Assembly: GCA_018665965.1 (NCBI GenBank)
Contig: JABJBF010000023.1
Coordinates: forward strand, 1 to 64,000
DNA length: 64,000 nt
Reading direction: 5' to 3'
DNA from: Candidatus Falkowbacteria bacterium
GTDB taxonomy: Bacteria; Patescibacteriota; Patescibacteriia; UBA11705; JABHMO01
Part shown: positions 1-64,000 of the stretch, one piece after another
How the letters are laid out: the number at the start of each line of letters is the position of its first letter
How positions within the stretch are numbered: the first letter of the stretch is position 1
Translations under genes and position numbers: made by a program
Notes under the pieces: model-generated
Seen by the model: only the letters and a program-made list of their open reading frames with translations
What the model was told of the DNA's origin: nothing
Databases searched by the model: none

Positions 1-2
1 AT

Positions 3-986
3 TTTGATAAATTAATGTCTGAGTTGGAAGTGCTTTCAGGTGGCTTAGGCTTTGCTGAACTTAAAGTAAAAGCTGAAGCTGGTGATAAAGAAGCGCTTCA
101 AGTGATGCGCGATTATATTGCGAAGAAAGAACAAATTGTGGAGTTTATAGAAACTAAGGAAATGATAGAAGTGGTCGTGCCAGAACGTACCAAGCGTGGT
201 TCTTTGCTCCCCAAAAGTCCGGATAATCCGCATAAAGATGAAGAGCCAGATCAAGATTATTTAATGCCCGAAGTGGAGCTAACATCACCGGAAAAAGCAG
301 TAGAAGCGCTGAAACAAATGTTTCCTGGATTAAACACAGAAAAGTGGTCAGAGGCATTAGAAAAAGGAGTTGCCCCAGCAATAAAAGCCTGCCAAGAGTT
401 GGGAATAGATCCAGAAAGACTGGTTGTTCATCCTTGGATAAAGCGAGAAGCCTTGTCAAGACTTGGTAATACAAACACAACGCACCACGGAGCATTGATT
501 GAAGAAGTAGTCCTTCCTAAACTTGAAGAATTGTATAAACCCAAAGGAATAAAATTTAAGAATTATATAGAAGGTGCGATGTCAGATGATAACCATCTGC
601 AAATGGAGACGGAATTTGCAAAATGGCTAACAGATAGAGAACAAGAAGTAGACGGTGATATATGCTTCAGTGCTCAGATCTTAGATTTACAGCAGGGATT
701 TAGTCCAGACGCAACAAAACATGAATTATCAAAAAAGTCTAACCTTATGGGGTCAAGTTGTTATCTAACTATGCAAATGCTGTTAACGCAAATACAATTG
801 CAAACAAAATGGGAAGAATTGCATTGGTGGATGTCAGCAGATAAGTATGATTTTGAAGGAGAAGCTCGGTTCCCGTCTGCCTTGTATTGCGGTGTGCTTG
901 GAGTCGGTTTCGAGTTTGTCAGCGCTCGCGCGGATAGCGCTTATACGCGGTGCGGTTCGCTCGTCCTGCCGTTCGAAGTGCTTTAG
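3..986 (+). CDS. Paralog-family protein (5'-truncated by window edge); conserved N-terminal domain '...FDKLMSELEVLSGGLGFAELKVKAEAGDKEALQVMRDYIAKKEQIVEFIETKEM' plus a unique C-terminal domain
   Basis: Reading frame is open from nt 3 (FDKLMSELEV...). The N-terminal ~60 aa are near-identical to the N-termini of the ORFs at 1092, 1902, 4191, 61001, 62124 and 62877. The C-terminal ~250 aa are unrelated to the other members. Confidence 0.6.
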   Translation, partial: FDKLMSELEVLSGGLGFAELKVKAEAGDKEALQVMRDYIAKKEQIVEFIETKEMIEVVVPERTKRGSLLPKSPDNPHKDEEPDQDYLMPEVELTSPEKAVEALKQMFPGLNTEKWSEALEKGVAPAIKACQELGIDPERLVVHPWIKREALSRLGNTNTTHHGALIEEVVLPKLEELYKPKGIKFKNYIEGAMSDDNHLQMETEFAKWLTDREQEVDGDICFSAQILDLQQGFSPDATKHELSKKSNLMGSSCYLTMQMLLTQIQLQTKWEELHWWMSADKYDFEGEARFPSALYCGVLGVGFEFVSARADSAYTRCGSLVLPFEVL

Positions 987-1091: not shown

Positions 1092-1898
1092 ATGAAAAGT
1101 TTAGAACAAATACAAGAACGCTCACTCCACGCTAACTTCACCGAAGTTCAGCAACAACATTTTGATAAATTAATGTCTGAATTAGAAATAATCTCAGGTG
1201 GTTTAGGTTTTGCTGAGCTTAAAGCAAAGGCTGAAGCGGGAAGTAAAGAAGCACTTCAGGTGATGCGAGATTACATTACCAAAAAAGAGGAGATTGTGGA
1301 GTTTATTGAGACTAAAGAAATGTTGAAGGAAAATGAATTTGGAGTAAGGGAGATACGGGAAAATGATAAGGTTTTTCTAGTAAATTTAAATCCAATAAAT
1401 GGTGGGTATTTTGTCAACTATGCTGTATCTAGTAAGGACACTATAGGGCCATTAACTGTTGATAAGGTAGAGAAAGTAGAGGGGCAGTTGGAACCTAAGC
1501 TGTCTGTGAGAAGAGGTACTAGGACCAAGGATGTTAATCCAATAGATCCAGTTTTTGTAGAAGGGTATTATGTGGCGATAAAGAACACAGAAGAGATAAC
1601 TAGAACTTCCAGTGGTGAGGAATACGTAATTTATTCCTTGGATACAAATAGATTTGGTAGTGTCGAGATGGGAAAAAAATATAAGATGAAGAAAAAAAAT
1701 AATTTAAAGTTTCAAAGTGGGCGGGTTTTTGAACCAAAAAACTTTTTTGTTTCTTGGGCTAAAAGTTTGGAAGAGGAGCAGTATCATCCGACCAATAATG
1801 ATGATAGGTGTATTTGGGTTACTTTAGATGCTGCTTTTGGCGGATCTAATTCTTTTCTTTTAGAGGATTTTGTTAAAAATTTTGAATTAGTAGAATAA
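1092..1898 (+). CDS. Paralog-family protein (conserved ~85-aa N-terminal domain with LMSELEIISGG motif; unique C-terminal domain)
   Basis: N-terminus 'MKSLEQIQERSLHANFTEVQQQHFDKLMSELEIISGGLGFAELKAKAEAGSKEALQVMRDYITKKEEIVEFIETKEM' is shared with 6 other ORFs in the window. Good spacing to the upstream gene. C-terminal part is unique. Confidence 0.65.
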   Translation: MKSLEQIQERSLHANFTEVQQQHFDKLMSELEIISGGLGFAELKAKAEAGSKEALQVMRDYITKKEEIVEFIETKEMLKENEFGVREIRENDKVFLVNLNPINGGYFVNYAVSSKDTIGPLTVDKVEKVEGQLEPKLSVRRGTRTKDVNPIDPVFVEGYYVAIKNTEEITRTSSGEEYVIYSLDTNRFGSVEMGKKYKMKKKNNLKFQSGRVFEPKNFFVSWAKSLEEEQYHPTNNDDRCIWVTLDAAFGGSNSFLLEDFVKNFELVE

Positions 1899-4190: not shown

Positions 4191-5324
4191 ATGTTAAACT
4201 TAGAACAATTAACTGAAAAATCTCTCCAAGCTAACTTCACTGAAGTTCAGCAACGTCATTTTGATAGATTAATGTCTGAGTTGGAAGTGATCTCAGGTGG
4301 TTTAGGTTTTGCTGAGCTCAAAGCGAAAGCTGAGGCCGGAAGTAAGGAGGCGCTTCAGGTGATGCGCGATTATATCGTTAAGAAAGAACAGATTGTGGAG
4401 TTTTTGGAAATCAAAAAAATTCCTAATGAAACAAAGTCAGCAGAAGAATTGTGCATGGAATTTAGAGGTGAGCCAGTTAAGGTTGCCCACCAGCGTCTAC
4501 ATGCATTAATGGAGACAAGTGCTTATATGAAAGGTCATCATATGTTTCGTCAAGGAATAGATTCTGAGGTTGTTTCTCGGGGTTATTCTTCTAAAGAGCA
4601 AATGTTAGGAAAAATAGTAGCTCATATGGCAGGAGATGGAATTTTGGCTGATTCCCTAACCAATGACATACAAGGCACGTTCTATGACCGAAGTATGCGT
4701 TTATTTAAGGCCAATGATAGATTTACAGGATTACAGACTTTTGATGCTAATACACAATTCTTGTCTGTGGTTGCTTTTATGCTAGAGGGCAAAACCCCTG
4801 CTTTTGAATTGGCCAAGTTTAGTGATCGTCTAAAAGACTCTGAATTATATAATAATGATAAGAACGTGTGGAACCGAAGAATAAGTCCGGACGGAGTACT
4901 TGATGGGCAACTGTACGCTGATGATTATTTGATAGAAATTTTAGCAAACTATTTTTTGGGAAAAACAGAGGAAGTTGAAAAATTATATAAAGAAATGGCC
5001 GAAAGACAGGGTGGAGATTTTTGGGGGGATGGGATTGTGCTGGAATCTCCAGAGGCTGATATTTCAATAAATGAACGTAGTAAAGATCTATTACTGGCAA
5101 TTATAACCCAGGCTTTGGTGGCTGACCCGCAAAAAGCTTACGCCCGATGGCTCAAAGGCAAAGAATTAGATTTGTATGATAAGGATAAAAAATTATGGTA
5201 TGAACGTAAAAATCATAGAGAAGCAGGAAAAATTTATCAGAACCATACAGTTGAAAATGAATTATTAGATATTATGGCGGAAGCGATTTTCATTAAACTT
5301 GGCTTGCATGATGATATTGAATAG
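4191..5324 (+). CDS. Paralog-family protein (conserved N-terminal domain; C-terminal domain of the subfamily shared with the 61001 and 62877 paralogs)
   Basis: N-terminus 'MLNLEQLTEKSLQANFTEVQQRHFDRLMSELEVISGGLGFAELKAKAEAGSKEALQVMRDYIVKKEQIVEFLE'. C-terminal motifs '...ANYFLGKTEEVEKLYKEM...' and '...ELLDIMAEAIFIKLG' recur in the 61001 and 62877 proteins. Confidence 0.65.
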   Translation: MLNLEQLTEKSLQANFTEVQQRHFDRLMSELEVISGGLGFAELKAKAEAGSKEALQVMRDYIVKKEQIVEFLEIKKIPNETKSAEELCMEFRGEPVKVAHQRLHALMETSAYMKGHHMFRQGIDSEVVSRGYSSKEQMLGKIVAHMAGDGILADSLTNDIQGTFYDRSMRLFKANDRFTGLQTFDANTQFLSVVAFMLEGKTPAFELAKFSDRLKDSELYNNDKNVWNRRISPDGVLDGQLYADDYLIEILANYFLGKTEEVEKLYKEMAERQGGDFWGDGIVLESPEADISINERSKDLLLAIITQALVADPQKAYARWLKGKELDLYDKDKKLWYERKNHREAGKIYQNHTVENELLDIMAEAIFIKLGLHDDIE

Positions 5325-16618: not shown

Positions 16619-16732
16619 AGATATCAAGAAATCAATTTTAAAATTTCTAAAGAGATTGTCGGAATAAAAAAATACTACCTGATTTTCCTTTTAAAACTTG
16701 GTGAAGTTTATCGGGTAGTTTAGAATGATGAT

Positions 16733-20173: not shown

Positions 20174-20193
20174 TGAGTGAATAGATAAAAAAT

Positions 20194-20667: not shown

Positions 20668-20700
20668 CCAGTAAAGTGTAAAGGGTAATAAGGGACTGTT

Positions 20701-21069: not shown

Positions 21070-21102
21070 TTACTTTTTACCTTTTACATTTTACTTATTA
21101 CT

Positions 21103-21870: not shown

Positions 21871-21883
21871 TTAGAAATTATTT

Positions 21884-22906: not shown

Positions 22907-24180
22907 AAACTATTAAAATAAATCACATCGCCAAAACTGAAGGCCACCTGAGTTTCGTTGGGGCTTTGCTTGGTAATGATTTTGCTCAAGCTCGCGTGGA
23001 CACAGAAGAGGGAGCTCGTTTGATCGAAGGAATATTATTAAATAGAAAATATTACGAAGCTCCGATTGTAACTTCGCGGATTTGTGGTGTATGCCCGATT
23101 GTGCATAATTTAACTTCAATTAAGGCCGTTGAGGCAGCTTTTAGTGTCAGGGTAACTCCGGAAATAATATTGCTTCGTAAGATCCTAGAAAATGCGCAAA
23201 TAATTCATAGTCATGCAGTACATGCTTTCTTTTTCTCGTTTCCTGATATCGTAGGTGTTAGTAATAATTTTGCTTTGATAAATAAGTATACCAAAGAGTC
23301 AAAAATTGCTCTTCAAGTTCGTGATTGGGGAGTGCAGTTAGCGCGAGTTGTTGGAGGTCGAACCGTTCATCCGATTAATAGTGTAGTTGGTGGATTTAAT
23401 GTTGAGCCAGACTTTGTTGAACTTAAAGAATTAATGCAAAAACAAAAGCAAGTTCTATTACAAGCTAGGCAAATTCATGATGTGGTTTTGAAATATAAAT
23501 TACCAAAGTTTCAAAGACCAACAAATTATGTTTCTTTGAAAAATAAAAATGAATATGCAGTTTATGATGGGAGCATTTATTTCTCAGATAATGATAGTTA
23601 TGATAAAGTCGAGGATTTCCTAAGTGACGTGCAAGAAACTGTTTTACCATATGAAAAAGTTAAACGCTCACATCATATGAAAGAAACGTTCATGGTTGGC
23701 GCTCTTGCTCGAGTGAACAATAATTATGCTCAGCTGAACAAAGAGGCAAAAGCTTCTTGGAATAAGCTAAAAGTGAACTTGCCGTGTTATAATTCATTCT
23801 ATAATATAGTAGCCCAGACAACTGAGATTATTAATTCAATTGAGGAGATAAATAAACTTTTTGTCCAATATGAGAAACTGCGAGCAAAACCGAAGTTTAT
23901 GAAAAACCTAAAAGTTGATTTCATAGTTAAGGCTGGTAAGGGTTATGCTGTGATGGAGGCACCTCGTGGGATCTTGTATCATGAATATGAATTTAACAAG
24001 GTGGGCGAAATTATTCATTGCAATGTAATTACACCAACCGCTATGTTTTTGGCTAATTTGGAAAAAGATCTTGAGAAATATTTGCCGCAAATTAAAAAGT
24101 TGTCAGATAAGAAGAGAGATTCGTTAATAAAAACTTTGATTCGGGCATACGATCCATGTATCAGTTGCGCGACGCATTAA
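22903..24180 (+). CDS. [NiFe]-hydrogenase large subunit (group 3b-like, HydA/alpha)
   Basis: N-terminal 'RICGVCPIVH' (RxCGxCxxxH) and C-terminal 'DPCISCATH' (DPCxxCxxH) Ni-Fe ligating motifs. Confidence 0.85.
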   Translation: MKTIKINHIAKTEGHLSFVGALLGNDFAQARVDTEEGARLIEGILLNRKYYEAPIVTSRICGVCPIVHNLTSIKAVEAAFSVRVTPEIILLRKILENAQIIHSHAVHAFFFSFPDIVGVSNNFALINKYTKESKIALQVRDWGVQLARVVGGRTVHPINSVVGGFNVEPDFVELKELMQKQKQVLLQARQIHDVVLKYKLPKFQRPTNYVSLKNKNEYAVYDGSIYFSDNDSYDKVEDFLSDVQETVLPYEKVKRSHHMKETFMVGALARVNNNYAQLNKEAKASWNKLKVNLPCYNSFYNIVAQTTEIINSIEEINKLFVQYEKLRAKPKFMKNLKVDFIVKAGKGYAVMEAPRGILYHEYEFNKVGEIIHCNVITPTAMFLANLEKDLEKYLPQIKKLSDKKRDSLIKTLIRAYDPCISCATH

Positions 24181-27409: not shown

Positions 27410-27487
27410 TTGGGCCTCCTTGTCATTTTGTTGTAAAAGTTCATAATCATTGTATCTTACTAATATTTTACGTTATTGTCAATAATA

Positions 27488-27513
27488 AAACCAGCACGGT
27501 GTGGTGCTGGTTT
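27488..27513 (-). terminator. Hairpin terminator (accagcac-ggtgtg-gtgctggt), copy 1
   Basis: 8-bp GC-rich stem followed on the minus strand by a T-run; immediately downstream of the 606-aa lipoprotein gene. Confidence 0.6.
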
Positions 27514-27520
27514 GTGTTAT

Positions 27521-29341: not shown

Positions 29342-29418
29342 TAAGGCCTCCTCAATGGGTTGTTGTCAAAGTCCAATTAGGTTATTTTCCCTTATTTTTT
29401 ATGATTTGTCAATGAAAA

Positions 29419-30005: not shown

Positions 30006-30119
30006 GTTTCCCCCTTGTTTTGTTGTTAAAGTTCAATTAGGTTATTTTCCCTTATTTCTAGTTATTTGTCAATGTTTTCTGAATTTAAAAACTCGACAAT
30101 AAGATTGTCGAGTCCACGT

Positions 30120-33985: not shown

Positions 33986-35530
33986 ATGGGACCTGTAGTA
34001 TTATTAATTCTAGATGGATGGGGAATTGCACCAAAAAGCAAAGGCAATGCAATTGAGTTGGCGAAAAAGCCAAACTTTGATTTGCTTTGGAAAAAGTATC
34101 CGCATACAGAATTAAAAGCTCATGGTCTTAATGTTGGTTTACCAAAACATTATGTTGGGAATTCTGAGGCTGGGCATATTAATATAGGCGCAGGAAGAGT
34201 TGTCAAAGACGACGCAGTTGAGATTTCCGAAGACATTTTGAATGGACGATTTAAGAAAAATTCAGCTTTAAATCAAACAATTGAAGTAGTCAAAAAAAAT
34301 AAATCAGCCTTGCACTTGATGGGAATGGTTTCAGATGGAGAAAGTCCACATTCATCTTTGGATCATTTGTATTCTTTGGTTGATTTAGCTTACAGTAAAG
34401 GGCTTCGGAAAATATATTTACACTTGTTTACGGATGGGCGTGATGCGCCGCAGTTTCATGCTTTGAAAATTGTTGATGAAGTATTGAAAAATGTTTACGG
34501 TAAAGCTGTAATTGTTAGTTTGATTGGTAGGTTTTATGCTATGGATCGAGGTAAAAACTGGAAACGAACTCAAAAAGCTTACGACTGCATGACTATTGGA
34601 AAAGGAGCATTTTTTAATGATTATCGTGATGCGATCGTACATGCTTATAATCAAAAGCAAACGGATGAGTTTATCGAGCCGTGTGTTATTGGTAAAGACA
34701 AAAAGCAGACAGAAAAGACTAGAATAAAAGAAAAAGATGGAGTGATATTTTTCAATGCGCGTTCTGATCGCTCCAGGCAGTTGAGCAAATGTTTTGTTCA
34801 ACATGATTTTAATAGAATGAATAAAGGTGCTTTTCGTCGATCTAAAGTATACAAAGGGTTGGAGTTTTGTGCTTTAACTGATTTTGGCCCAGATTTAGAT
34901 CATATTTTAACTGCCTATCCTGCTGCTGAATTAAATGCAACTTTGCCAATAATTTTGGATGACAAAAAACAGCTTTATATTGCAGAAACAGAAAAATATG
35001 CCCATGTTACTTACTTTATGAATGGAGGTTCAGCTGATCCGGTAAACGGTGAAGCAAGGCTTAAAATTAATTCACCTCGAGTGAAAAGTTATGCACTTAA
35101 ACCTGAAATGAGTGTTTACAAAATAACTAACAAAGTAAAACAATTTATTGAAAGAAAAAAATTCGATTTCTTTGCAATTAATTTTGCTAATCCAGACATG
35201 ATAGGTCATACGGGTAATTTGAAGGCAGTCGTGGAGGCAGTCAACCATGTAGATAAATGTATTGGTGAATTGACTAAGCTAGTATTAAAAAATAAAGGTG
35301 TTATAATTATAACTGCTGACCATGGTAATGCTGAAAAAATGATTGATTTAAAAACAAATGAGATTTGGACTGGGCATACTACTAATCCAGTCCCGTTTGT
35401 TCTAGTTTCTGATGAACACAAGGGGGTTAAATTAAGAAAAGGTATTCTAGGTGATATTGCGCCAACAGTATATGATTTATATAATCAAGAAAATATTTCA
35501 AAAAAAATAAAAAAATCTCTAATAAAATAA
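33986..35530 (+). CDS. gpmI: 2,3-bisphosphoglycerate-independent phosphoglycerate mutase, copy 1
   Basis: 'LLILDGWGIAP', 'GNSEAGHINIGAGR' (Ser nucleophile), 'ADHGN'; 514 aa. Confidence 0.8.
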   Translation: MGPVVLLILDGWGIAPKSKGNAIELAKKPNFDLLWKKYPHTELKAHGLNVGLPKHYVGNSEAGHINIGAGRVVKDDAVEISEDILNGRFKKNSALNQTIEVVKKNKSALHLMGMVSDGESPHSSLDHLYSLVDLAYSKGLRKIYLHLFTDGRDAPQFHALKIVDEVLKNVYGKAVIVSLIGRFYAMDRGKNWKRTQKAYDCMTIGKGAFFNDYRDAIVHAYNQKQTDEFIEPCVIGKDKKQTEKTRIKEKDGVIFFNARSDRSRQLSKCFVQHDFNRMNKGAFRRSKVYKGLEFCALTDFGPDLDHILTAYPAAELNATLPIILDDKKQLYIAETEKYAHVTYFMNGGSADPVNGEARLKINSPRVKSYALKPEMSVYKITNKVKQFIERKKFDFFAINFANPDMIGHTGNLKAVVEAVNHVDKCIGELTKLVLKNKGVIIITADHGNAEKMIDLKTNEIWTGHTTNPVPFVLVSDEHKGVKLRKGILGDIAPTVYDLYNQENISKKIKKSLIK

Positions 35531-35537
35531 ACAAAAT

Positions 35538-37121
35538 ATGCAAAAAATACCTAAACCAGTTGTACTTATAATTCTTGATGGTTGGGGAATTGCTCCAGCG
35601 TCAGAAGGTAATGGTGTGACTTTGGCCAAAACACCTAATTTTGATAAATTAGTAGCAAATTATCCTGCTATGACTTTGTTAGCTTCAGGTGAGGCTGTGG
35701 GGTTATCCTGGGGTGAAATGGGGAATTCGGAAGTTGGTCATTTGAATTTAGGTGTAGGGAAGATTTTTTATCAAAACTTACCTAGGATTAGCAAGGCAAT
35801 TGAGGATGAGACAATCTTTGAAAATGAAACTCTCAAGAAGGCAATTGCTCATGTACAAAAACATAATTCAAAATTGCATCTTGTGGGGTTGATGAGTGAA
35901 GGTAAGGTTCATGGTATGAACAGTCATTGTTATGGTCTTTTGGAATTAGCCAAGAAAAATAAAGTTAAAGAAGTGTATGTACATGCATTTTTAGATGGCC
36001 GTGATTCACCATATAATAGTGGTGAAGGATTCATTCAAGAACTTGAGGAAAAATTCAAGGAAATTGGTGTTGGCGTAGTGGCTTCTCTGCATGGACGTAT
36101 GTTTGCTATGGATCGTGATAATCGTTGGGAAAGGATAGAAAAAACATATCGAGCAATGGTCGAAGGAAAAAGTGAAGAGTATTACAAAAATCCAGTAAAA
36201 GCAGTTCAGGGTTCTTATAAGCATAAAGTTTATGATGAAGAGTTTGAGCCAGTTGTAATTGGTAAAGATGGAAGGCCAACTTCTGTAGTTGAAAAAAACG
36301 ATGCGGTGATATATTTCAATTATCGAGCTGATCGTGCTAGGCAGTTGACTAAAGCTTTTGTTATGGATGATTTTGATAAGTTTCAGAGAAGTGAAAAAAT
36401 TGCAAATTTGTTTTTTGCTACAATGACAGAATATGAGGAGGGCCTACCAGTAGAAGTTATTTTTCCAAAAGAAGAAATCAAGATGTCACTACCAAAAATT
36501 TTAAGTCAAAAAGGGTACAAACAGTTGCATATTGCGGAAACTGAAAAGTATGCCCATGTTACTTTTTTCTTTAGTGGTGGAACGGAGGATCCATACGAAG
36601 GCGAAGACAGAATTGTAATTCCTTCTCCAAAGGTGGCAACATATTCAGAAAAGCCGGAAATGTCAGCCAAGAAAGTTACTGATGATTTGATGAAAGAGAT
36701 TATGAGTGAGAAACATGATTTTATTGTGGTTAATTATGCCAATCCTGACATGGTTAGTCACACTGGTGAAATTAAGCCAACAGTTCAATCAATTGAGTAT
36801 ACTGATAAATTGTTGGGCGATGTTGTGAATTTAATTTTATCAAAAGGCGGGCAGGCAATGATAGTTGCAGACCACGGTAATGCTGAAGAGTTAGTGAACT
36901 TACAAACAGGTGAAAAAGACAAGGAGCATAGTACTAATCCTGTGCCGTGTCTAGTGATTGGCAAACAATTTGAAGGAAAAACAATCGAGGATGTTCAGTT
37001 GGTAGGCAATGATTTAAGTTTAGTTCAGCCGATTGGTCTTTTGTCTGATGTTGCACCAACGATTTTAAAAATGATGAATATTGATATTCCTGATGAAATG
37101 TCAGGGCGGTCGTTAATTTAG
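35538..37121 (+). CDS. gpmI: 2,3-bisphosphoglycerate-independent phosphoglycerate mutase, copy 2 (tandem paralog)
   Basis: 'LIILDGWGIAP', 'GNSEVGHLNLGVGK', 'ADHGN'; 527 aa. Confidence 0.8.
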   Translation: MQKIPKPVVLIILDGWGIAPASEGNGVTLAKTPNFDKLVANYPAMTLLASGEAVGLSWGEMGNSEVGHLNLGVGKIFYQNLPRISKAIEDETIFENETLKKAIAHVQKHNSKLHLVGLMSEGKVHGMNSHCYGLLELAKKNKVKEVYVHAFLDGRDSPYNSGEGFIQELEEKFKEIGVGVVASLHGRMFAMDRDNRWERIEKTYRAMVEGKSEEYYKNPVKAVQGSYKHKVYDEEFEPVVIGKDGRPTSVVEKNDAVIYFNYRADRARQLTKAFVMDDFDKFQRSEKIANLFFATMTEYEEGLPVEVIFPKEEIKMSLPKILSQKGYKQLHIAETEKYAHVTFFFSGGTEDPYEGEDRIVIPSPKVATYSEKPEMSAKKVTDDLMKEIMSEKHDFIVVNYANPDMVSHTGEIKPTVQSIEYTDKLLGDVVNLILSKGGQAMIVADHGNAEELVNLQTGEKDKEHSTNPVPCLVIGKQFEGKTIEDVQLVGNDLSLVQPIGLLSDVAPTILKMMNIDIPDEMSGRSLI

Positions 37122-41655: not shown

Positions 41656-42231
41656 ATGCTTAATAAAAAATTCTGGCAAGGTGTGTTGCAAGGTCAAACT
41701 GAATATGACATCTCCAGACGAAAGATTATCGGTGAAAGTTCAGGTGCCTTACAATCAGCGAAACAGGCAATTTTTGCTTTACAAAGAGATAATAAGGCTG
41801 AAGCCGAAGAAAAAATTAAAGAGTCAAAAAAAGGACTTATTAGTTTAGAAGAGCGTTTTGGGAAAGATGGTAAGCTCCGAATTGAAGGTGCTTGGAAGGC
41901 GGCAGTAGAAGAATATGTAGAAGCTAAATTATTTAGTGACTTTATTGAAGGGAGAAAAATTGATGGTGTTGAAGAATTTTTTGTGTTGCCAGATGAATAT
42001 ATTGGGGGTTTGTCAGATTTGACTGGGGAAATTGTTCGAATGATGATTCTTTGGACGACTAGAGGTGAGATTGAAAAAGTGAAAAAGGCCTCTGAAGTTA
42101 TAGATGGTATTATTCATGAACTTATGCAGTACAATTACGGGGGTTACTTGCGAACTAAGTTTGATCAAGCTAAACGGTCATTACAAAAAGCGCAACAAAT
42201 TCTTTATGATTTAAGTATTCGTGAAAAATGA
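41656..42231 (+). CDS. Hypothetical protein
   Basis: 191-aa soluble helical ORF; no motif recognised. Confidence 0.35.
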   Translation: MLNKKFWQGVLQGQTEYDISRRKIIGESSGALQSAKQAIFALQRDNKAEAEEKIKESKKGLISLEERFGKDGKLRIEGAWKAAVEEYVEAKLFSDFIEGRKIDGVEEFFVLPDEYIGGLSDLTGEIVRMMILWTTRGEIEKVKKASEVIDGIIHELMQYNYGGYLRTKFDQAKRSLQKAQQILYDLSIREK

Positions 42232-47067: not shown

Positions 47068-47074
47068 CTTTATG

Positions 47075-47123
47075 TTGTGCCTTATTACCTTGTTTCGCCA
47101 TATTTAGCCTTATTAATTGTATG
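47075..47123 (+). repeat. ~45-bp intergenic repeat, copy 3 (gtgccttattaccttgtttcgccatatttagccttattaattgtATG)
   Basis: Same family as 16449 and 16569; ends at the tatD start codon. Confidence 0.5.
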
Positions 47124-57791: not shown

Positions 57792-58018
57792 TTGATCTCC
57801 TCACACTAAGAGTTTAAATGAACTAGCTGTACAAATACTTTTCTAAAATATCATTTATGGTTTTTGGTGTCAATGTGTACAATCTTGATTTCAATAGATT
57901 AGCAATTATTTCAAGTAATGTCAAGTCTCAAGGTGGCCTAGGAGAGACAGGAGCATGTAAAGATACCTGATTTGGGTCTCTTGTCTGACGGGTCTTTTTT
58001 GTGCTAATATATACACAT

Positions 58019-60997
58019 ATGAGTCTAATTTCTGAATCAAATGAACAACAAAAGCAAGCCATTATTCACGAAGATGGACCTCAGTTGATTGTGGCTGGAG
58101 CTGGTACGGGGAAGACTCGGGTTGTAACTGCCAGAATTGCATATTTGATTACTGAAAAAAATGCTAATGTTGATGAAGTATTAGCTTTAACTTTTACTGA
58201 AAAATCTGCGCAGGAAATGGAAGAGCGCGTGGATCAAATGCTTCCATATGGTTATGTTGATTTGTGGATTTCAACTTTTCATGCTTTTTGTGACAAAATT
58301 TTGAAACGGCATGCTCTGGATATTGGTTTGCCAAATAATTACAAACTCGTGGATGGGACGGAGGCCTGGCTCTTGGTGAGGAAAAATTTGGACAAGTTCA
58401 AATTAGAATATTATCAGCCGTTAGGTAATCCAACCAAGTTTATCCACGCACTGTTAAAGCATTTCTCTCGTTGCAAGGATGAAGGTATTTATCCTGAAAA
58501 TTATTTAAAATATGCACAGGAAATCAAGTTAAATGATGATGTTCACGATTTCGTAAACAAAATAGATTTCAGTAAGGTTGACGAAGCTAATCAAAAAGAA
58601 ATATTAAAACAAGAAATTCTTCGAATTGAGGAAATTGCCAATGCCTATCAGACTTATCAGCAAATTTTAATTGATAATGAGAGCTTGGATTTCGCTGATT
58701 TAATAAATTATACAATTCAATTATTTAAAAAGCGCCCATTAATTTTGGCTAAATATCGTCAACAGTTCAAACACATTTTGGTTGACGAGTTTCAGGATAC
58801 AAACTTTGTTCAATACGAGTTAATTAAACTTTTGGCCACACCCAAAAACAATATCACAGTTGTAGGAGATGATGATCAGAGCATTTACAAGTTTCGTGGA
58901 GCTTCGATTTCTAATATAATGCAGTTCAAAAAAGATTACCCAACGGCTAAAGAAGTTGTATTAATAGAAAACTATCGATCTACACAGGAAATTCTAGATT
59001 TAGCCTACAATTTTATTTTACAAAACAATCCATATCGATTGGAGGAAAAATTAGGTATTGATAAAAAATTAAAATCTAACGTTTCTGAAAAAGGCGAGGT
59101 TGTTCACTATCATTTGTCGTCTGTTGAGGAAGAGGCAAAGGCAGTAATTCAAAAAATAATAAAATTAAAACAAGATCAGCAAGCGGAGTGGTCAGATATA
59201 GCAATTTTAGTTAGGGCTAATGATAGCGCCAATATTTTTATTAATTATTTAGAACAAGCTCAAATTCCGTACCAATTCCTGGCTATGCGAGGGTTGTACA
59301 ATAAATCAGTTGTGGTTGATATTATTAATTATTTCAAGTTGCTGGATAATTATCATGAGAGCGCGGCAGTTTATCGAATTCTAAACTTGCCATTTCTAAA
59401 TATTGAGCCTGAACAAATTGTTAAATTGGTTCATTTAGCTAAGAGAAAATCAATATCTATATTCGAATCATTAAAGCAGGCTTCAACAGTTCCAGGCTTA
59501 ACTGAACAAACTTTGAAGTCAATTAACAATATTTTAGTTCAAGTTGAAAAAGATACTCAGTTAGCACAAAATAAAAAACCGACTGAAGTTTTATTAAGTT
59601 TTTTGTACGGCTCAGGTTATTTGGAGTATTTGAATGATTTGGAACCAGCAAAAGCAAAAGAAACGCTAGATTTTGTTCAACAATTTTTCAAGAAAATTCA
59701 AGAAGTGGAAATGTCGTATGAGGATCCGAGGCTTAGTGACTTAATGGAGCTTTTGAATATGGAAATGCAATCGGGCGAAAGTGGGAAATTGGCGTTTGAC
59801 GTGGAAACTGGTCCGGACATGGTGCGTATTATGACAATTCACAGTGCCAAGGGTTTAGAATTTGATTATGTGTTCGTTTCTTGTTTGGTTGATCGAAAAT
59901 TTCCGACCGATCAGCGTAAAGAGGTAATTGAAATTCCAGATTCTTTGATAAAAGAAGACTCCTCAGAAGGTGATTTTCATTTAGAGGAAGAACGGAGATT
60001 ATTTTATGTAGCAATGACCAGAGCAAAAAGGGGATTGTTCTTCACTTCAGCTGATGACTATGGTGGAGCACGAAAAAAGAAATTGTCTCGCTTTTTAACA
60101 GAATTAGGGTATAATAAACCTGAAGAATCTGGAAAAGCTGAGCCTACAGTTGAGCGAGTACAAAAGGATGACTCTAAGGCTTTTGAATATCAGCTACCGC
60201 GCAATTTTAGTTATTCACAAATGCAGACTTATGAAACTTGTCCTTTGAAGTACAAGTTTGCCAATGTTTTAAAAATTCCAACCTTTGGTAATCACTATTT
60301 TTCATTTGGTTCAACTATTCACAATACTTTACAAAAATTTTTGGAAGAATGTTTTACGGTTGGACTGCATACCCAACAAGATATATTTGCGGTAGGAGGG
60401 AGCGAGACAGGGATGTCTCGCGAACCAGCAAACCAAAATAGATTATTGTCGTTAGAAAGGTTATATGAAGTTTATAATGAAAACTGGCAGGATGATTGGT
60501 ATGTTAATGCAAAACAAAAAGAGGAGTATTTAGAAAAAGGCAAAGATTTATTAAAAAACTTCCACCAAGGTTTTGAAAAAAACAAACCAAAAGTTAAATT
60601 ATTGGAACAGTCGTTCCGATTGAAGATTGGGGAATACACCTTTGTTGGGCGTATTGACCGAGTGGATGAATTAGAAAAAGGGCAGTTTGAAATTATTGAT
60701 TACAAAACTGGGCAAGTTAAAGAAAAATTATCCACAGAGGACCGACGCCAGCTAATGTTCTATCAGATTGCAGCTGAAGAAGTTTTGAATATAAAGTTAG
60801 AAAAATTAACCTATTATTTTCTTGATGATGACAGCCAAGTCTCTTTTCTTGGCAACTCTAAAGACAAGGAAAAACTCAAACAAAGGTTTTTGGATAATAT
60901 TGAACAAATTAAAAAGCAAAATTTTGATCCTAAACCCAGTCAACACATTTGTGGGCATTGTGACTTTAAAGATATTTGTGAATTTCGAAAATTGTAA
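58019..60997 (+). CDS. UvrD/PcrA-type SF1 helicase fused to a C-terminal RecB/Cas4-like PD-(D/E)XK nuclease domain with Cys cluster
   Basis: Helicase motifs 'AGAGTGKT', 'ILVDEFQDTN', 'ENYRST', 'TIHSAKGLEFD'. Nuclease 'GRIDRVDE...EIIDYKTG' and terminal 'CGHCDFKDICEF'. Start chosen at the first ATG (the ORF track uses an upstream GTG). Confidence 0.75.
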   Translation: MSLISESNEQQKQAIIHEDGPQLIVAGAGTGKTRVVTARIAYLITEKNANVDEVLALTFTEKSAQEMEERVDQMLPYGYVDLWISTFHAFCDKILKRHALDIGLPNNYKLVDGTEAWLLVRKNLDKFKLEYYQPLGNPTKFIHALLKHFSRCKDEGIYPENYLKYAQEIKLNDDVHDFVNKIDFSKVDEANQKEILKQEILRIEEIANAYQTYQQILIDNESLDFADLINYTIQLFKKRPLILAKYRQQFKHILVDEFQDTNFVQYELIKLLATPKNNITVVGDDDQSIYKFRGASISNIMQFKKDYPTAKEVVLIENYRSTQEILDLAYNFILQNNPYRLEEKLGIDKKLKSNVSEKGEVVHYHLSSVEEEAKAVIQKIIKLKQDQQAEWSDIAILVRANDSANIFINYLEQAQIPYQFLAMRGLYNKSVVVDIINYFKLLDNYHESAAVYRILNLPFLNIEPEQIVKLVHLAKRKSISIFESLKQASTVPGLTEQTLKSINNILVQVEKDTQLAQNKKPTEVLLSFLYGSGYLEYLNDLEPAKAKETLDFVQQFFKKIQEVEMSYEDPRLSDLMELLNMEMQSGESGKLAFDVETGPDMVRIMTIHSAKGLEFDYVFVSCLVDRKFPTDQRKEVIEIPDSLIKEDSSEGDFHLEEERRLFYVAMTRAKRGLFFTSADDYGGARKKKLSRFLTELGYNKPEESGKAEPTVERVQKDDSKAFEYQLPRNFSYSQMQTYETCPLKYKFANVLKIPTFGNHYFSFGSTIHNTLQKFLEECFTVGLHTQQDIFAVGGSETGMSREPANQNRLLSLERLYEVYNENWQDDWYVNAKQKEEYLEKGKDLLKNFHQGFEKNKPKVKLLEQSFRLKIGEYTFVGRIDRVDELEKGQFEIIDYKTGQVKEKLSTEDRRQLMFYQIAAEEVLNIKLEKLTYYFLDDDSQVSFLGNSKDKEKLKQRFLDNIEQIKKQNFDPKPSQHICGHCDFKDICEFRKL

Positions 60998-61000
60998 AAC

Positions 61001-62113
61001 ATGAAAACATTAGAACAAATTCAGGAAAGTGCACTAAAGGTTGACTTTAATAGGGCTCAGCAACAACATTTTGACAAATTAATGTCTGAATTAGAAGTGA
61101 TTTCAGGTGGTTTAGGATTTGCTGATCTTAAAGCAAAGGCTGAGTTGGGTAGTAAAGAAGCACTTCAAATTATGCGGGATTACATTACAAAGAAAGAAAA
61201 AATTGTGGAGTTTATTGAAACCAAGCGAATGCCATATATAGACGCTGAAACTATGCGAAATATTTTAAATGAAGGCACAGCTGAAAAAGCCAAAGAAAAA
61301 TTACAAGTATTGTTATATACTTCAGCCTTTGATAAGCAAAAGCAAATGTTAACCCAAAAACTTGGTGGGGTAGGTAATGCAGTGACCCATAGGAATTGTG
61401 TTCTTCTTGAATTGGCAGGCCAATTGACAGGTGACATACAAACTTCAATAACACAGCCGTGGGAAAGTAAAATGTATAACCGAGAAAACAGGCTATATAA
61501 TTGTGCCGATCTGAGTCTTGGGGTTGAAGAGTATGATGCTGAAGGGCAATTTTTGAGTATTTTGATGGTTTTGATCCAGCCCAAAAATGATCTTGCTGAT
61601 ACTGCTGGTCAGCGCTTGTCAGATTTAAAGAAACTTAAGTTTTATATGGAAGAGTTTGATTCATGGTTTACTAGTGTGACCCCAGATACAACTCAAAATA
61701 AAACATTAAACTTTACTGATTTAAGTTTGTATTCTAAAGATCAACTTTTGTATCAATTAGTAAACTTTTTTCTTGGTCAGGAAGAAGAAGCTCGACAGGG
61801 ATTTGGAAATCTTAAACAGGAATATTATGATCCAAAACTTGGTTGGAAACAGTCTAATTACCATCATCACGATGAAGAGGTAGAGAGAACTTCAACTGAT
61901 CAACTAATGGGTATCATGGCTGAAGCCATTTTGGGTAGTCCCTATGAGGCAAAAGAAAAATGGCAGGAATTAAAAAAAGACCCACGTTGGGTTGAGCCTG
62001 AGTCTGGTTGTTGGCGAGCTACAGAGAACAGTGTAAAAGGTTATAATACTTCGGATGAGTTAATGGATATTATTTTAACTGCGATTTTCGAGAAATTAAA
62101 AATAAAAAATTAA
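61001..62113 (+). CDS. Paralog-family protein (conserved N-terminal domain; C-terminal domain of the 4191/62877 subfamily)
   Basis: 'VDFNRAQQQHFDKLMSELEVISGGLGFADLKAKAELGSKEALQIMRDYITKKEKIVEFIETKRM'. C-terminal '...VNFFLGQEEEARQGF...LMDIILTAIFEKLKI'. Confidence 0.65.
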   Translation: MKTLEQIQESALKVDFNRAQQQHFDKLMSELEVISGGLGFADLKAKAELGSKEALQIMRDYITKKEKIVEFIETKRMPYIDAETMRNILNEGTAEKAKEKLQVLLYTSAFDKQKQMLTQKLGGVGNAVTHRNCVLLELAGQLTGDIQTSITQPWESKMYNRENRLYNCADLSLGVEEYDAEGQFLSILMVLIQPKNDLADTAGQRLSDLKKLKFYMEEFDSWFTSVTPDTTQNKTLNFTDLSLYSKDQLLYQLVNFFLGQEEEARQGFGNLKQEYYDPKLGWKQSNYHHHDEEVERTSTDQLMGIMAEAILGSPYEAKEKWQELKKDPRWVEPESGCWRATENSVKGYNTSDELMDIILTAIFEKLKIKN

Positions 62114-62123
62114 CTATTATAAA

Positions 62124-62855
62124 ATGAAATCACTAGAGCAAATACAAGAACGCGCACTTCATGCTAGCTTCACCGAAGTTCAGCAACGTCATTTTGATAA
62201 ATTAATGTCTGAGTTGGAAGTAATCTCAGATGGTTTTGGGTTTGCTGAGCTTAAGGCAAAGGCAGAAGCAGGGGATAAAGAGGCGCTTCAAGTAATGCGT
62301 GATTATATCGCTAAGAAAGAAAAGATTGTTGAATTCATTGAAACTAAAGAAATACCTTTAGGGACTAATTTAGAGTGGAAGTCATATTTTATTGGTGTTG
62401 GTGATGAGGGGATGGTTTGGCATCCAGGTAAACCATACCATGGGAAGATGTGTGAAGTTGAAGAAGTTACCCAAGAGGATAGTCGTGGATTACTCTATAA
62501 AGTAAAAATGCTTGACAATACTCCGCTTTGGCTTTTTTCAGATCAATTAATTAAGACTGATCATGTTCAACAAGTTTTGAACGGTTTTATCACTACGTTG
62601 GCTGTTAAGTCGATTTTTGGATTAGAATTGCATAAACATTATCAACTTGATAAGAGTAAGAGGAATCCAGAAAACATTGTCGGTAGTCGATTGCAATCTT
62701 TGCTTGATAAAGAAGAAGTCACATCAATAAGCATAACAGCAGTCGAGCATATTAATAATGAGCCTGAGCAAGTAAGGGTACATGTCGAAGCAGAATTACA
62801 GACTGGGGAGCTATCTTCAAGAAAACATAATTATATGCTATATTTTCCTGAATAA
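62124..62855 (+). CDS. Paralog-family protein (conserved N-terminal domain, with GG replaced by DG; unique C-terminal domain)
   Basis: 'HASFTEVQQRHFDKLMSELEVISDGFGFAELKAKAEAGDKEALQVMRDYIAKKEKIVEFIETKEI'. Confidence 0.65.
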   Translation: MKSLEQIQERALHASFTEVQQRHFDKLMSELEVISDGFGFAELKAKAEAGDKEALQVMRDYIAKKEKIVEFIETKEIPLGTNLEWKSYFIGVGDEGMVWHPGKPYHGKMCEVEEVTQEDSRGLLYKVKMLDNTPLWLFSDQLIKTDHVQQVLNGFITTLAVKSIFGLELHKHYQLDKSKRNPENIVGSRLQSLLDKEEVTSISITAVEHINNEPEQVRVHVEAELQTGELSSRKHNYMLYFPE

Positions 62856-62876
62856 ATTGAATTATAAAGTTGGTTT

Positions 62877-63968
62877 ATGAAAATTGAATCCGAATTACAA
62901 GAAAAAGCACTCCACGCTAGCTTCACTGAAGTTCAGCAACGTCATTTTGATAAATTAATGTCTGAGTTAGAAGTGATTTCAGGCGGTTTAGGTTTTGCTG
63001 AGCTTAAGGCGAAGGCGGAAGCGGGAAGTAAGGAGGCACTTCAGGTAATGCGGGACTATATAACAAAAAAAGAACAAATCGTTAATTTTATTGAAACTAA
63101 GGAATTTTTTCCGTTGATGAAGCCAAATGAATTATTAGAAAAGCTACGAAGCGGGCCATCAGAGGAAGTCAAAGAAAATACAGGTAGGTTATTTAAAACA
63201 ACGGCTTATGGCGATACCGGATTATGGGATGATTTCGTTGAATCTGAATCAGGTGTCAGTCGGGTAACTTCAGCTACACAGTTTTTATCTGCAATTAATA
63301 TGAATTTAATTAAGCCGCAAGAGCGTTTTACGGATAGCTTTCTGCACTTAATTGATATTAGGTGCAAGAGTGATGGTTTATATAAACATAGATTTGATGG
63401 ACCAGAAAATTTTTATTGTAATTCACAGCTTTATGGCGTCCTGGCATTTGTGTTTGATGGACAGATGGCAAGAGCTAAGGATTTTTATAGTGAGATACAG
63501 CAAAGCGAGTTATATGACGTTGAGGCAGAAGTTTGGATGAATAGAGTAGGTGAATTTGGTGAAGATTCAAGTCAAATGACTGAAAACTATTTACTTCAAG
63601 TTATAGTTGAATATTTTTTAGGTAATCAAGAAAAAGCTGAGCAGGTTTATCGTGACTTGAAAAAAGTCAGTTACCAAGAAGCGGAGGGTATGTGGAATGA
63701 TCAATTGTCAGATGAGGCTGATTCCTACGTATCAAGGGTGCAGCTTCTAGGAAGCTTGGCCCATGGGTTAGTTGAAGATCCAGACGAGGGTGAAATAGAT
63801 TGGTGTCGGATGAAGAATACTGATTTGTGGGATAAGAAAAAGAAAATGTGGCGTTATATGGAAAAAGATGAAGGTGTAGATAAGGACATTGATATTCATA
63901 CCCGAGATCAATTTTTGGAGAATATTTTAGTGGCAGTGTTTAAGAAGCTGAATTACATTGAAACATAA
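62877..63968 (+). CDS. Paralog-family protein (conserved N-terminal domain; C-terminal domain of the 4191/61001 subfamily)
   Basis: 'HASFTEVQQRHFDKLMSELEVISGGLGFAELKAKAEAGSKEALQVMRDYITKKEQIVNFIETKEF'. C-terminal '...VEYFLGNQEKAEQVY...FLENILVAVFKKLNYIET'. Confidence 0.65.
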   Translation: MKIESELQEKALHASFTEVQQRHFDKLMSELEVISGGLGFAELKAKAEAGSKEALQVMRDYITKKEQIVNFIETKEFFPLMKPNELLEKLRSGPSEEVKENTGRLFKTTAYGDTGLWDDFVESESGVSRVTSATQFLSAINMNLIKPQERFTDSFLHLIDIRCKSDGLYKHRFDGPENFYCNSQLYGVLAFVFDGQMARAKDFYSEIQQSELYDVEAEVWMNRVGEFGEDSSQMTENYLLQVIVEYFLGNQEKAEQVYRDLKKVSYQEAEGMWNDQLSDEADSYVSRVQLLGSLAHGLVEDPDEGEIDWCRMKNTDLWDKKKKMWRYMEKDEGVDKDIDIHTRDQFLENILVAVFKKLNYIET

Positions 63969-64000
63969 AAACATCAGAACATTTACTGTAATTGCTTTAA

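Follow-up and report, generated by a model that had tools for sequence, protein, structure and literature searches.

The PE/PPE proteins of mycobacteria, which are substrates of type VII (ESX) secretion, form a large lineage-restricted family in which a short, conserved helical N-terminal module precedes variable C-termini, often in tandem, and recombination and gene conversion among members add to their variation. The WXG100/LXG toxin substrates of Firmicutes, too, are targeted by a helical domain at the N-terminus, to which polymorphic C-terminal domains are joined, and they occur as multi-copy arrays. In the F-box (F-box with WD40, LRR or other domains) and BTB–Kelch adaptors, a helical N-terminal module of ~50–80 residues is joined to WD40 or other binding domains; F-box families are large, turn over rapidly and are tandemly arrayed, with a conserved module and fast-evolving heads. 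Dispersed homologous blocks are also found in Neisseria pilE/pilS, Borrelia vlsE and Anaplasma msp2, where a single expression site is accompanied by truncated, promoterless silent cassettes and the variable segment lies between conserved flanks.

A family that resembles each of these in part occurs in a tiny, uncultured Candidatus Falkowbacteria bacterium, one of the CPR/Patescibacteria, organisms with very small genomes that are thought to be attached to other microbes and in which the proteins mediating attachment are mostly unknown. It was recognised in a 64-kb stretch of DNA (the window), where seven genes in two clusters share a helical N-terminal module followed by dissimilar C-terminal domains, here termed heads. 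Although the general layout matches that of PE/PPE proteins, there is no sequence relationship (PF00934 and PF00823 give no match at E ≤ 1), no paired PE–PPE arrangement and no nearby ESX gene, and in place of low-complexity repeats the heads have globular folds of a binding or enzyme-like kind. WXG100 and LXG Pfam models likewise fail to match, a turn in the module reads G–x–G–F instead of W–x–G or L–x–G, and the family lacks toxin domains, downstream immunity genes and a neighbouring secretion ATPase, none of the EssC/EccC type being seen in the window or in the family loci that were fetched. With the F-box and BTB adaptors it shares large, fast-turnover tandem arrays of a conserved module with fast-evolving heads, but no F-box or BTB Pfam match was obtained and a ubiquitin system is not expected in this bacterium; the likeness is one of possible working mode and not of membership. 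The pilE/pilS, vlsE and msp2 systems are comparable in having dispersed blocks that could serve as conversion substrates and short mosaic tracts, whereas here the copies are complete open reading frames (ORFs), only the 5′ block is conserved, and exchange is rare and local. The reading that we hold with moderate confidence is of a lineage-specific multigene family with a selected constant module and variable heads, in which exchange is local only and the module would act as a docking handle.

Family members and their genomic setting

The relevant features of the window are as follows.

1..986, + strand, g0, cluster 1, 5′ end lost at the window edge; full length 352 aa
1092..1898, + strand, g1, cluster 1, 268 aa
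1902..2687, + strand, g2, cluster 1, 261 aa
2759..4024, + strand, MurF-type Mur ligase within cluster 1, between g2 and g3 (Pfam Mur_ligase_M, Mur_ligase_C)
4191..5324, + strand, g3, cluster 1, downstream of murF, 377 aa, (α/α)6-type head
58001..60997, + strand, helicase–nuclease fusion (UvrD-like helicase, Cas4-like PD-(D/E)XK nuclease) bordering cluster 2 on its upstream side, 3 nt before g4
61001..62113, + strand, g4, first gene of cluster 2, 370 aa, module 61001–61228, then a ~294-aa (α/α)6-barrel-like head
62124..62855, + strand, g5, second gene of cluster 2, 243 aa, module 62124–62351, disordered linker, head opening with an SH3-like β-barrel
62877..63968, + strand, g6, third and last gene of cluster 2, 363 aa, module 62877–63104, (α/α)6-type head akin to those of g3 and g4

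Cluster 2 contains exactly these three genes, with a convergent gene after g6 (L012), and its N-terminal module of ~76 residues is common to all four family genes of cluster 1. An earlier note on this DNA had placed three paralogs carrying the cluster 1 cassette in the same orientation 57 kb away, with the helicase–nuclease on one side and murF as the other neighbour, and this arrangement is borne out. The truncated g0 is whole on a public contig (L013, 938–1996) whose positions 1011–6127 are 100% identical to window positions 1–5117, and which carries a further family member (230 aa) upstream of g0. All seven copies in the window and this eighth are intact ORFs with their own ATG. Family genes are embedded co-directionally in housekeeping operons; the members of cluster 2 directly succeed one another, with gaps of 3–21 nt.

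The helicase–nuclease is identified by its domains (Pfam UvrD-helicase, 1.4e-80; UvrD_C, 4.6e-54; PDDEXK_1, 1.6e-37), and its ortholog in a related genome, at 86% DNA identity, is also followed by family genes. Cluster 1 sits in a cell-wall synthesis (dcw-type) neighbourhood between ftsI and murF. The murF gene, which served as divergence calibrator, is 91.6% identical to that of the relative in amino acids and 85.2% in nucleotides (dS 0.80, dN/dS 0.066). Comparison of the family loci revealed no recurring non-family neighbour gene beside the members. The family extends well beyond the window: profile HMMs count at least 26 family genes at 7 loci in the source genome, cluster 2 being one of at least seven, and the locus-tag prefix HN858_, common to the window genes and to proteins from loci L007–L011, assigns these many loci to one genome.

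The 5′ cassette and the module it encodes

At the DNA level the clusters appear as direct repeats, one of 245 nt in six copies and one of 171 nt in seven, which are 77–84% identical to the reference copy; from the copy at 4187 to that at 60997, in the same orientation, is 56,810 nt. The shared 5′ cassette is ~230 nt long, and its likeness is real, with BLAST E-values between copies of 1e-38 to 1e-70, far beyond chance. The level of 85–90% given in the earlier note is nevertheless too high, since 77–85% was measured; over an ungapped core of 53 codons pairwise identity is 0.767–0.849 (mean 0.818), and the best 30-nt windows reach 0.88–0.90. On either side identity falls to a random level (0.26–0.29) within ~30 nt, a few bases before the ATG and after codon ~77, and the edges of the block are exactly the boundaries of the protein domain.

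The module is all-helical, comprising a short helix, a long helix, a tight G–x–G–F turn (in full [GDQN]–G–x–G–F), a short helix and a long helix. In the protein alignment 36 of its columns are invariant, and past residue ~77 the sequences are unrelated. An exhaustive profile search of 1.84 billion proteins yielded 51 module-bearing representatives, 123–445 aa long, always with the module at residues 1–77. No match to the module was found in Pfam, NCBIfam, PADLOC, PHROGs or the PDB, and a search with the module alone found no structural analogue. AF2 models of g4 and g5, of moderate confidence (pLDDT 67–68) and built on shallow alignments, predict the same four-helix module followed by a low-confidence linker. 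All members are acidic. Because they have no signal peptide or transmembrane segment, and no hydrophobic segment (maximum 19-residue Kyte–Doolittle mean ≤ 1.37), the cytoplasm is taken as their default location, though they might be exported by a non-canonical route.

A flexible linker leads from the module to the heads, which fall into about 29 similarity groups, whose folds include (α/α)6 barrels, SH3-like barrels and WD40 propellers, others being of unknown fold. Related heads within tandem arrays are 31–61% identical; the g6 head is 28% identical to that of g3 (E = 6e-24) and 25% to that of g4. These three heads are predicted to share the fold of (α/α)6-barrel glycoside hydrolases of the GH76, GH88 and GH105 type, at 6–12% sequence identity to the structural matches, and no Pfam or NCBIfam match marks them as glycoside hydrolases by sequence. 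The (α/α)6 head profile matches only three proteins, each of which carries the module. No nuclease, deaminase or peptidase domain was found among the heads. A polymorphic toxin–immunity system was considered and rejected: there is no toxin domain, family genes adjoin one another, and PADLOC returns no match.

Divergence of the module within and between genomes

The earlier note read the DNA-level conservation of the cassette as a sign of ongoing concerted evolution between the clusters, through which C-terminal domains might be swapped between expressed copies as antigenic or effector variation, or the intervening DNA deleted. The present case shows that paralogs may be ~80% identical in DNA over 230 nt owing solely to constraint on the protein and to codon bias. 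What decides the matter is how far synonymous sites have diverged and how orthologs compare with paralogs, not identity as such. Synonymous sites of the cassette are close to saturation between paralogs, with a pS of 0.63 and a mean dS of at least 1.43 (3 of the 21 pairs giving no defined value), against a dS of 0.51–0.84 for housekeeping orthologs of the source genome and the related species. This is in essence the outcome that the earlier note had named as refuting its reading. When the observed protein sequences are back-translated with random codons, identity already reaches 0.750. The module is under strong purifying selection (dN/dS 0.02–0.17 between paralogs), and the heads evolve 3–6 times faster than housekeeping genes, with a dN/dS between orthologs of 0.17–0.42 compared to 0.064–0.072 for murF and its neighbours.

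Comparison within and between genomes gives the same answer. Modules from different clusters of one genome are 0.775 identical in nucleotides and those from different genomes 0.780 (Mann–Whitney P = 0.21), with same-codon fractions of 0.580 and 0.586. For the window copies alone, module identity is 0.818 within the window, 0.811 to non-orthologs of the relative and 0.843 to orthologs, these controls coming from one related genome only. Cluster 1 and cluster 2 modules are 0.813 identical (maximum 0.849), and the longest exact run between them is 32 nt. As the likeness of the two clusters is no higher than that between species, their similarity is not maintained by concerted evolution, and there is no detectable sequence exchange between them.

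The same-codon fraction is ~0.58–0.61, equal within and between genomes, where a codon-usage null predicts 0.455; paralogs, at 0.61, lie below the 0.66–0.74 of housekeeping orthologs. This excess of synonymous identity (0.61 versus 0.455) could mean that saturation is incomplete, that codons are selected at particular sites or that conversion took place very long ago. The 77–85% identity of the cassettes is mostly a by-product of protein constraint and family-wide codon preferences.

Local exchange and gene turnover

Between adjacent copies the picture differs, and two exact tracts in the window are candidates for conversion.

1131..1177, + strand, 47-nt tract of g1 identical to 1944–1990 in g2, candidate short gene-conversion tract between adjacent paralogs
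62175..62215, + strand, 41-nt tract of g5 identical to 62928–62968 in g6, second-longest exact run, adjacent genes

The g1–g2 tract is the longest exact run of all pairs (Sawyer-type permutation, global P = 0.008), and within it the two genes, identical to each other, differ from their respective orthologs at 7 and 4 sites, although the test loses significance when confined to third positions (P = 0.23); for g5–g6 the pairwise P is 0.007, uncorrected, and such tracts rest on few informative sites. In the relative, the adjacent genes at L001 15960 and 17144 share a 53-nt exact run inside a mosaic tract of ~80 nt, and in the source genome an adjacent pair (L008 9201 and 10001) has whole modules that are 93.9% identical, with unrelated C-termini. 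Conversion tracts are short and sporadic, a single recent exchange spans a whole module, and both kinds are confined to adjacent copies.

The species differ in which genes they carry and in what order, and the breakpoints fall at or close to modules (P = 0.059 for the breakpoint in the region orthologous to cluster 2). The ortholog of g0 is located after murF instead in the relative, and three extra family genes lie between the orthologs of g1 (L001 9188–9994, head 71% identical) and g2 (L001 13824–14609, 75%); those of g3 (L001 17144–18277) and g6 (L014 4224–5330) have heads that are 66% and 51% identical. A nonsense pseudogene is present in five assemblies. The family has grown by tandem duplication and by the gain and loss of whole genes. 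In tandem arrays a head has a module on both sides, which would offer a plausible route for the loss, gain or relocation of whole genes.

Ongoing conversion between dispersed clusters, swapping C-termini or mediating deletion, can draw on real direct repeats, on the identical tracts of neighbouring copies, on the single module-bounded exchange between unrelated heads and on the breakpoints near modules. As an account of exchange between the clusters it is largely refuted by the module identities, the dS of at least 1.4 (0.5–0.84 in housekeeping orthologs) and the short longest run, and as a whole we consider it improbable. Two independent assemblies are free of structural variants, one differing at a single position in 4,704 nt and the other being 100% identical over 5,117 nt, and a repeat-mediated deletion of the intervening 57 kb would cost the cell essential genes (murF, those of glycolysis, MetRS and the F-ATPase). 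The architecture of antigenic variation is absent, for the copies are full ORFs throughout, each with its own ATG, so that no silent cassettes feed one expression site; a cassette-type system was accordingly rejected, there being no truncated copies among the eight. What survives of the proposal that the modules are substrates for exchange is its occasional operation between neighbouring copies.

Possible roles of the module

The role that appears most likely, by analogy with adaptor or substrate-receptor families and with secretion handles, is that of a constant docking or assembly handle, which would tie varied binding heads to one common partner. On this proposal the need of every copy to fit one partner would keep the module nearly invariant, while the heads diversify.

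It is rather doubtful that the handle serves secretion by a dedicated non-Sec pathway, as the N-termini of WXG100/LXG and PE/PPE proteins do, with the heads exported as adhesins or glycan-active effectors acting on the host. The constant helical N-terminus, the polymorphism of the C-termini, the fast evolution of the heads and the many genes of the family would fit; glycosidase-like (α/α)6 barrels and SH3-like barrels are folds common on cell envelopes, and cluster 1 lies in the ftsI–murF neighbourhood. Yet none of the seven paralogs matches WXG100, LXG, PE or PPE models of Pfam or NCBIfam even at E ≤ 1, there is no W–x–G or Y–x–x–x–D/E motif, no toxin domain and no immunity-like gene after family genes, and neither a secretion ATPase nor a transporter is present in the 64-kb window or the other family loci; type VII secretion is not known in this phylum. 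A second export route, in which the module would be a long leader of the double-glycine type (…LMSELEVISGG↓) and a C39-peptidase ABC transporter would cleave and export it, is suggested by the resemblance of L–M–S–E–L–E–x–I–S–G–G to the consensus of such leaders, L–S–x–x–E–L–x–x–I–x–G–G, but is very unlikely. The hydrophobic register is one residue off the consensus, the first glycine (position −2) is D, Q or N in g5, P0004, the L009 members and P0053, and the motif is missing from the most distant members (P0056, P0057). The 40 residues past the ‘GG’ are as conserved as those before it, which is unexpected downstream of a cleavage site, and AF2 places the glycines in a tight turn within a predicted compact helical unit; NCBIfam leader models give no match at E ≤ 1, and no C39 or ABC transporter gene occurs in the window or among the Pfam labels of the other loci.

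That the cassette is instead conserved as nucleic acid, whether as mRNA structure, regulatory site or recombination site, is hardly to be credited at all, although some synonymous positions are strikingly uniform and the same-codon fraction (0.58–0.61) exceeds the expected 0.455. The consensus structure that RNAalifold derives from 27 copies is weak: its energy is −11.45 kcal/mol for 237 nt, with a covariation term of −1.07, and just 4 of its 34 pairs show any compensatory change. Elsewhere many synonymous sites are randomised, and the conserved stretch matches the extent of the protein domain exactly.

A bolder form of the docking-handle reading, to which we give an outside chance, is that the module is a previously undescribed CPR-specific handle through which the at least 26 heads per genome are recruited to a single machine, and that the heads recombine as cassettes. 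The putative machine might be a non-canonical export or surface-display route for host attachment, or an intracellular hub resembling the F-box adaptors; heads flanked by modules would be cassettes that homologous recombination could delete, insert or relocate. A family with an orphan invariant N-terminal domain and heads that change fast from one sister species to the next is an obvious candidate for lineage-specific interaction biology and, being well defined, it could be addressed by co-folding screens, pull-downs and metaproteomics. Its 26 or more members amount to about 2–3% of the genes in a roughly 1-Mb genome.

Within the coding sequence of the module, certain synonymous positions are strikingly uniform among copies and in both genomes, namely S29 (TCT), S35 (TCA), L55 (CTT), K64 (AAG, but K65 AAA) and E70 (GAG), and many other synonymous sites are fully randomised.

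Two gene clusters with a common 5' cassette

Seven open reading frames of the window, in cluster 1 (g0 to g3) and cluster 2 (g4 to g6), begin with a common N-terminal stretch of about 76 residues, termed here the module and encoded by a 5' cassette of about 230 nt; the C-terminal remainder of each protein is termed the head.

<1-986, + strand, g0, cluster 1 ORF truncated by the window edge
1092-1898, + strand, g1, cluster 1 ORF
1902-2687, + strand, g2, cluster 1 ORF
4191-5324, + strand, g3, cluster 1 ORF
61001-62113, + strand, g4, cluster 2 ORF of 370 aa
62124-62855, + strand, g5, cluster 2 ORF of 243 aa
62877-63968, + strand, g6, cluster 2 ORF of 363 aa

The three ORFs of cluster 2, the sharing of their cassette with cluster 1 in direct orientation and the genes flanking both clusters had been described in an earlier note, and all were confirmed. 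A repeat search of the window returned a 245-nt direct repeat in six copies and a 171-nt direct repeat in seven, with 77-84% identity to the reference copy and a spacing of 56,810 nt between the copies in g3 and g4. A UvrD-like helicase fused to a PD-(D/E)XK nuclease ends 3 nt before the start of g4, and a MurF-type ligase gene separates g2 from g3. The same note put cassette identity at 85-90%; the measured values are somewhat lower, pairwise nucleotide identity over the ungapped 53-codon core being 0.767-0.849 (mean 0.818). The identity profile forms a plateau at 0.72-0.90, bounded on the 5' side by a point a few bases ahead of the ATG and on the 3' side by codon 77 or thereabouts, and within some 30 nt at each edge it sinks to random values (0.26-0.29).

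Two public contigs extend the clusters. L013 (GCA_018662385.1, a Candidatus Falkowbacteria MAG) is 100% identical to window positions 1-5117 and gives g0 a full length of 352 aa, with another family member of 230 aa upstream, while L012, from a second, independent assembly, differs by 1 nt in 4,704 from positions 59297-64000 and identifies g6 as the last gene of cluster 2, followed by a convergent gene.

Origin of the similarity between cassettes

The earlier note attributed the similarity of the cassettes to ongoing concerted evolution, and named saturation of synonymous sites as the observation that would speak against it. In the 53-codon core the paralogues have a mean pS of 0.63 and a mean Jukes-Cantor dS of at least 1.43, undefined in three of the 21 pairs, with dN/dS of 0.02-0.17. 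When codons were drawn at random from the genome's own usage for the observed amino acid sequences, nucleotide identity was 0.750 ± 0.008 versus 0.818 observed, and the same codon is used at 0.61 of identical residues versus 0.455 expected; since the random null already reaches 0.750, most, though not all, of the similarity comes from protein constraint. Syntenic DNA of the window's genome and of a related species, hereafter the relative (loci L001, L014 and L015), is 79-87% identical, and murF and two neighbouring genes show a dS of 0.51-0.84 and a same-codon fraction of 0.66-0.74 between the two species. The synonymous divergence of the paralogous modules exceeds that of these genes, and the modules therefore predate the species split.

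A comparison within and between genomes used 33 modules labelled by genome, the further loci L007-L011 being assigned to that of the window. Modules from different clusters of the same genome have a nucleotide identity of 0.775 and a same-codon fraction of 0.580, and those from different genomes 0.780 and 0.586 (Mann-Whitney P=0.21). For cluster 1 against cluster 2 the values are 0.813 (maximum 0.849) and 0.593. Only same-cluster pairs are slightly higher (0.790-0.811 and 0.611-0.635), owing to a few adjacent pairs. Because the values are equal within and between genomes, the residual synonymous similarity stems from incomplete saturation or from position-specific codon usage that the copies share, and not from homogenisation. 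Concerted evolution between clusters 1 and 2 is thus not supported as the cause of the similarity. A deletion between the two clusters would take out murF, PGK, enolase, iPGM, MetRS, MltG and the F-ATPase.

Some synonymous positions are nearly fixed across paralogues and both species, viz. S29 TCT versus S35 TCA, K64 AAG versus K65 AAA, L55 CTT and E70 GAG, and others within module codons 24-76 are fully randomised; RNA structure explains none of those nearly fixed. An RNA structure embedded in the cassette was considered and set aside, with weak support and no covariation (RNAalifold -11.45 kcal/mol over 237 nt, covariation term -1.07).

Local exchange and gene turnover

The gene conversion proposed in the earlier note survives for adjacent copies but not between the clusters, whose longest common exact run is 32 nt. 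A Sawyer-type permutation test of clusters 1 and 2, covering their eight modules, picked out a 47-nt tract in the adjacent genes g1 and g2 as the longest concordant one (global P 0.008); third positions alone gave no significant result (P=0.23). Within this tract g1 and g2 are identical to each other, yet differ from their respective orthologues at 7 and 4 sites, a pattern that conversion more recent than the species split would leave. The second-longest exact run, of 41 nt, also lies in adjacent genes, g5 and g6. In the relative, the first 26 nt or so of the g0 orthologue track its own orthologue and the next 80 nt or so track the neighbouring g3 orthologue, including a 53-nt exact run with it. 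At L008, another locus of the window's genome, the adjacent genes at 9201 and 10001 have modules that are 93.9% identical and C-termini with no detectable similarity (best BLASTP E-value 0.21). Such tracts indicate that exchange between copies occurs, and that it is local and sporadic. The same two L008 genes also match upstream, over about 100 nt of intergenic sequence (9080-9200 and 9880-10000) that includes G+C-rich inverted repeats (…CCCGCAAACGGGATCCCGCTATGCGGG…) and then short repeats of the CCAATA type.

Gene content and order differ between the window's species and the relative. The latter has three additional family genes between its g1 and g2 orthologues, with a breakpoint at or near the module 5' end, and one of these is a nonsense pseudogene found in five assemblies; at L001 10001-10690, and likewise at L002-L005, an in-frame TAG stands at codon 57 of the module, and downstream of it lie the remaining module codons and a 137-aa ORF. 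The g0 position is upstream of g1 in the window's genome and after murF in the relative. There, the g6 orthologue lies directly 3' of the helicase, and over its first 50 nt it resembles g4 at 14 of the 17 informative sites. This arrangement would fit a simple deletion chimera of g4 and g6, but the breakpoint has P=0.059, and the g4-like N-terminal variant also occurs in the gene after the g6 orthologue and at another locus (family protein P0041), so that the chimera is suggestive only and was not adopted. Tandem arrays hold genes with related heads (31-61% identity), which shows tandem duplication to be the main route of family growth. Taken together, the comparisons show that members arise by tandem duplication, that whole genes are gained and lost, and that neighbours undergo short conversion on rare occasions.

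The module and its heads

The module had no match in Pfam, NCBIfam, PADLOC or PHROGs when all paralogues were scanned, and neither had most heads. A profile search of PDB sequences with the module gave nothing better than E=0.1, and fold searches gave matches for heads only, with no distinctive analogue of the module. In AlphaFold models of g4 and g5 the module is predicted as four helices (residues 4-12, 18-35, 40-48 and 52-74; pLDDT about 71-89), in which an invariant G-x-G-F motif forms a tight turn, and is followed by a low-confidence linker. By similarity, the heads form about 29 groups, and WD40 propellers are present in other family members. Interspecific dN/dS is 0.17-0.42 for the heads versus 0.064-0.072 for housekeeping genes, and at least 26 paralogues retain about 87% amino acid identity in the module with diverged synonymous sites. 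The family thus shows a strongly constrained, constant N-terminal domain joined to heads that are diverse, evolve fast and have binding or enzyme-like folds.

Distribution of the family

Five further loci (L007-L011), on three long contigs, came from a metagenome scan with the module. Their proteins share the HN858_ locus-tag prefix with window genes g1, g5 and g6, with parallel accession series in several assemblies, and the five loci are for these reasons other parts of the window's genome. The genome-wide expansion raised in the earlier note was found, an HMM count giving at least 26 genes with the module, spread over seven loci that are placed inside or at the ends of housekeeping operons (ftsI-murF, helicase, secY-adk-map, tyrS).

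Beyond the window's lineage the family is very rare. Nine module matches were found among 5.8 billion clustered proteins, and 185,579 species-representative genomes, scanned with patterns derived for the module, contained 40 candidate matches, of which none was confirmed. An exhaustive profile search of 1.84 billion proteins yielded 51 family representatives, all with the module at residues 1-77 and lengths of 123-445 aa, and with a sharp step in E-value from 1e-17 to 1e-4. No description of the family was found in the literature, and the family is best regarded as a hitherto undescribed multigene family of a CPR bacterium, built on an orphan domain.

Possible function and comparison with known systems

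The module may be a docking or assembly handle tying all heads to one common partner, which would explain its amino acid identity across so many paralogues despite their synonymous divergence. The partner could be an export route or an intracellular hub. Hydrophobic segments are absent from every member, and all members are acidic; given the absence of export signals, the cytoplasm is the default location. No recurrent non-family neighbour stands beside the family genes as a candidate partner. Three genes of the window bear on specific proposals:

10813-13728, + strand, 971-aa homologue of the eukaryotic major vault protein (MVP) (Pfam MVP_shoulder 3e-28, Vault_3 3.5e-9)
25190-27409, - strand, WD40/β-propeller protein of 739 aa without the family module
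27521-29341, - strand, WD40/β-propeller protein of 606 aa without the family module

A double-glycine leader was suggested by the sequence ELEVISGG, which resembles one, but the first glycine is variable, the motif is absent in the most distant members, the 40 residues after GG are as conserved as those before it, and the models set the motif in a turn within a compact domain. No C39 transporter was found in the sequence examined, the two ORFs at 25190-29341 that had been considered as C39-ABC transporters both being WD40 proteins. The MVP homologue, 5.5 kb from cluster 1, raised the idea of vault cargo, which was rejected, since MVP homologues number at least 1,780 in many phyla and show no specific co-occurrence with the module.

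In architecture and evolutionary behaviour, the family comes closest to the PE/PPE and WXG100/LXG families, and likewise to adaptor families such as F-box proteins, although it belongs to none of these because the sequence tests for membership were negative. The family also lacks the layout that defines cassette-type antigenic variation systems.

Other features of the window

Several further features were recorded:

5392-5823, + strand, cysteine-rich protein of 143 aa with an N-terminal hydrophobic segment, directly after g3
14610-18188, + strand, 23S-rRNA-intervening-sequence protein, LexA and DinB-type polymerase, close together
16438-16487, 16561-16610 and 47074-47123, 50-nt motif in three copies (…TTGCC.TGTCTAGCC.TGTTTAGCC.TATTA…TATG; 78-80% identity)
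18405-24180, [NiFe]-hydrogenase-like and Fe-S/FAD subunits, with a PLP-dependent enzyme among them
33986-35530 and 35538-37121, + strand, tandem paralogues of cofactor-independent phosphoglycerate mutase, immediately following PGK and enolase
41656-42231, + strand, Translin-family protein (Pfam PF01997, 5.8e-19)

The region of the MVP homologue has a G+C content of 0.43-0.47 versus about 0.36, and an orthologue 83% identical lies on the relative's contig with locus L001; many of the homologues are from bacterial MAGs (Parcubacteria, Riflebacteria, Anaerolineae, Polyangiaceae and others). The Translin family is mainly eukaryotic and archaeal, and a member is unusual in a bacterium. The phosphoglycerate mutase paralogues have a 43-nt repeat common to their 5' ends. 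An intergenic repeat of 66 nt (29349-29414 and 30009-30074, 83% identical) comes before the two minus-strand genes that follow those for the WD40 proteins. The 50-nt motif, which in at least one case has an ATG at its end (the TatD gene start, 47121), may be a common 5' leader or promoter element. The cysteine-rich protein is 93.7% identical in amino acid sequence between the two species, versus 91.6% for murF.
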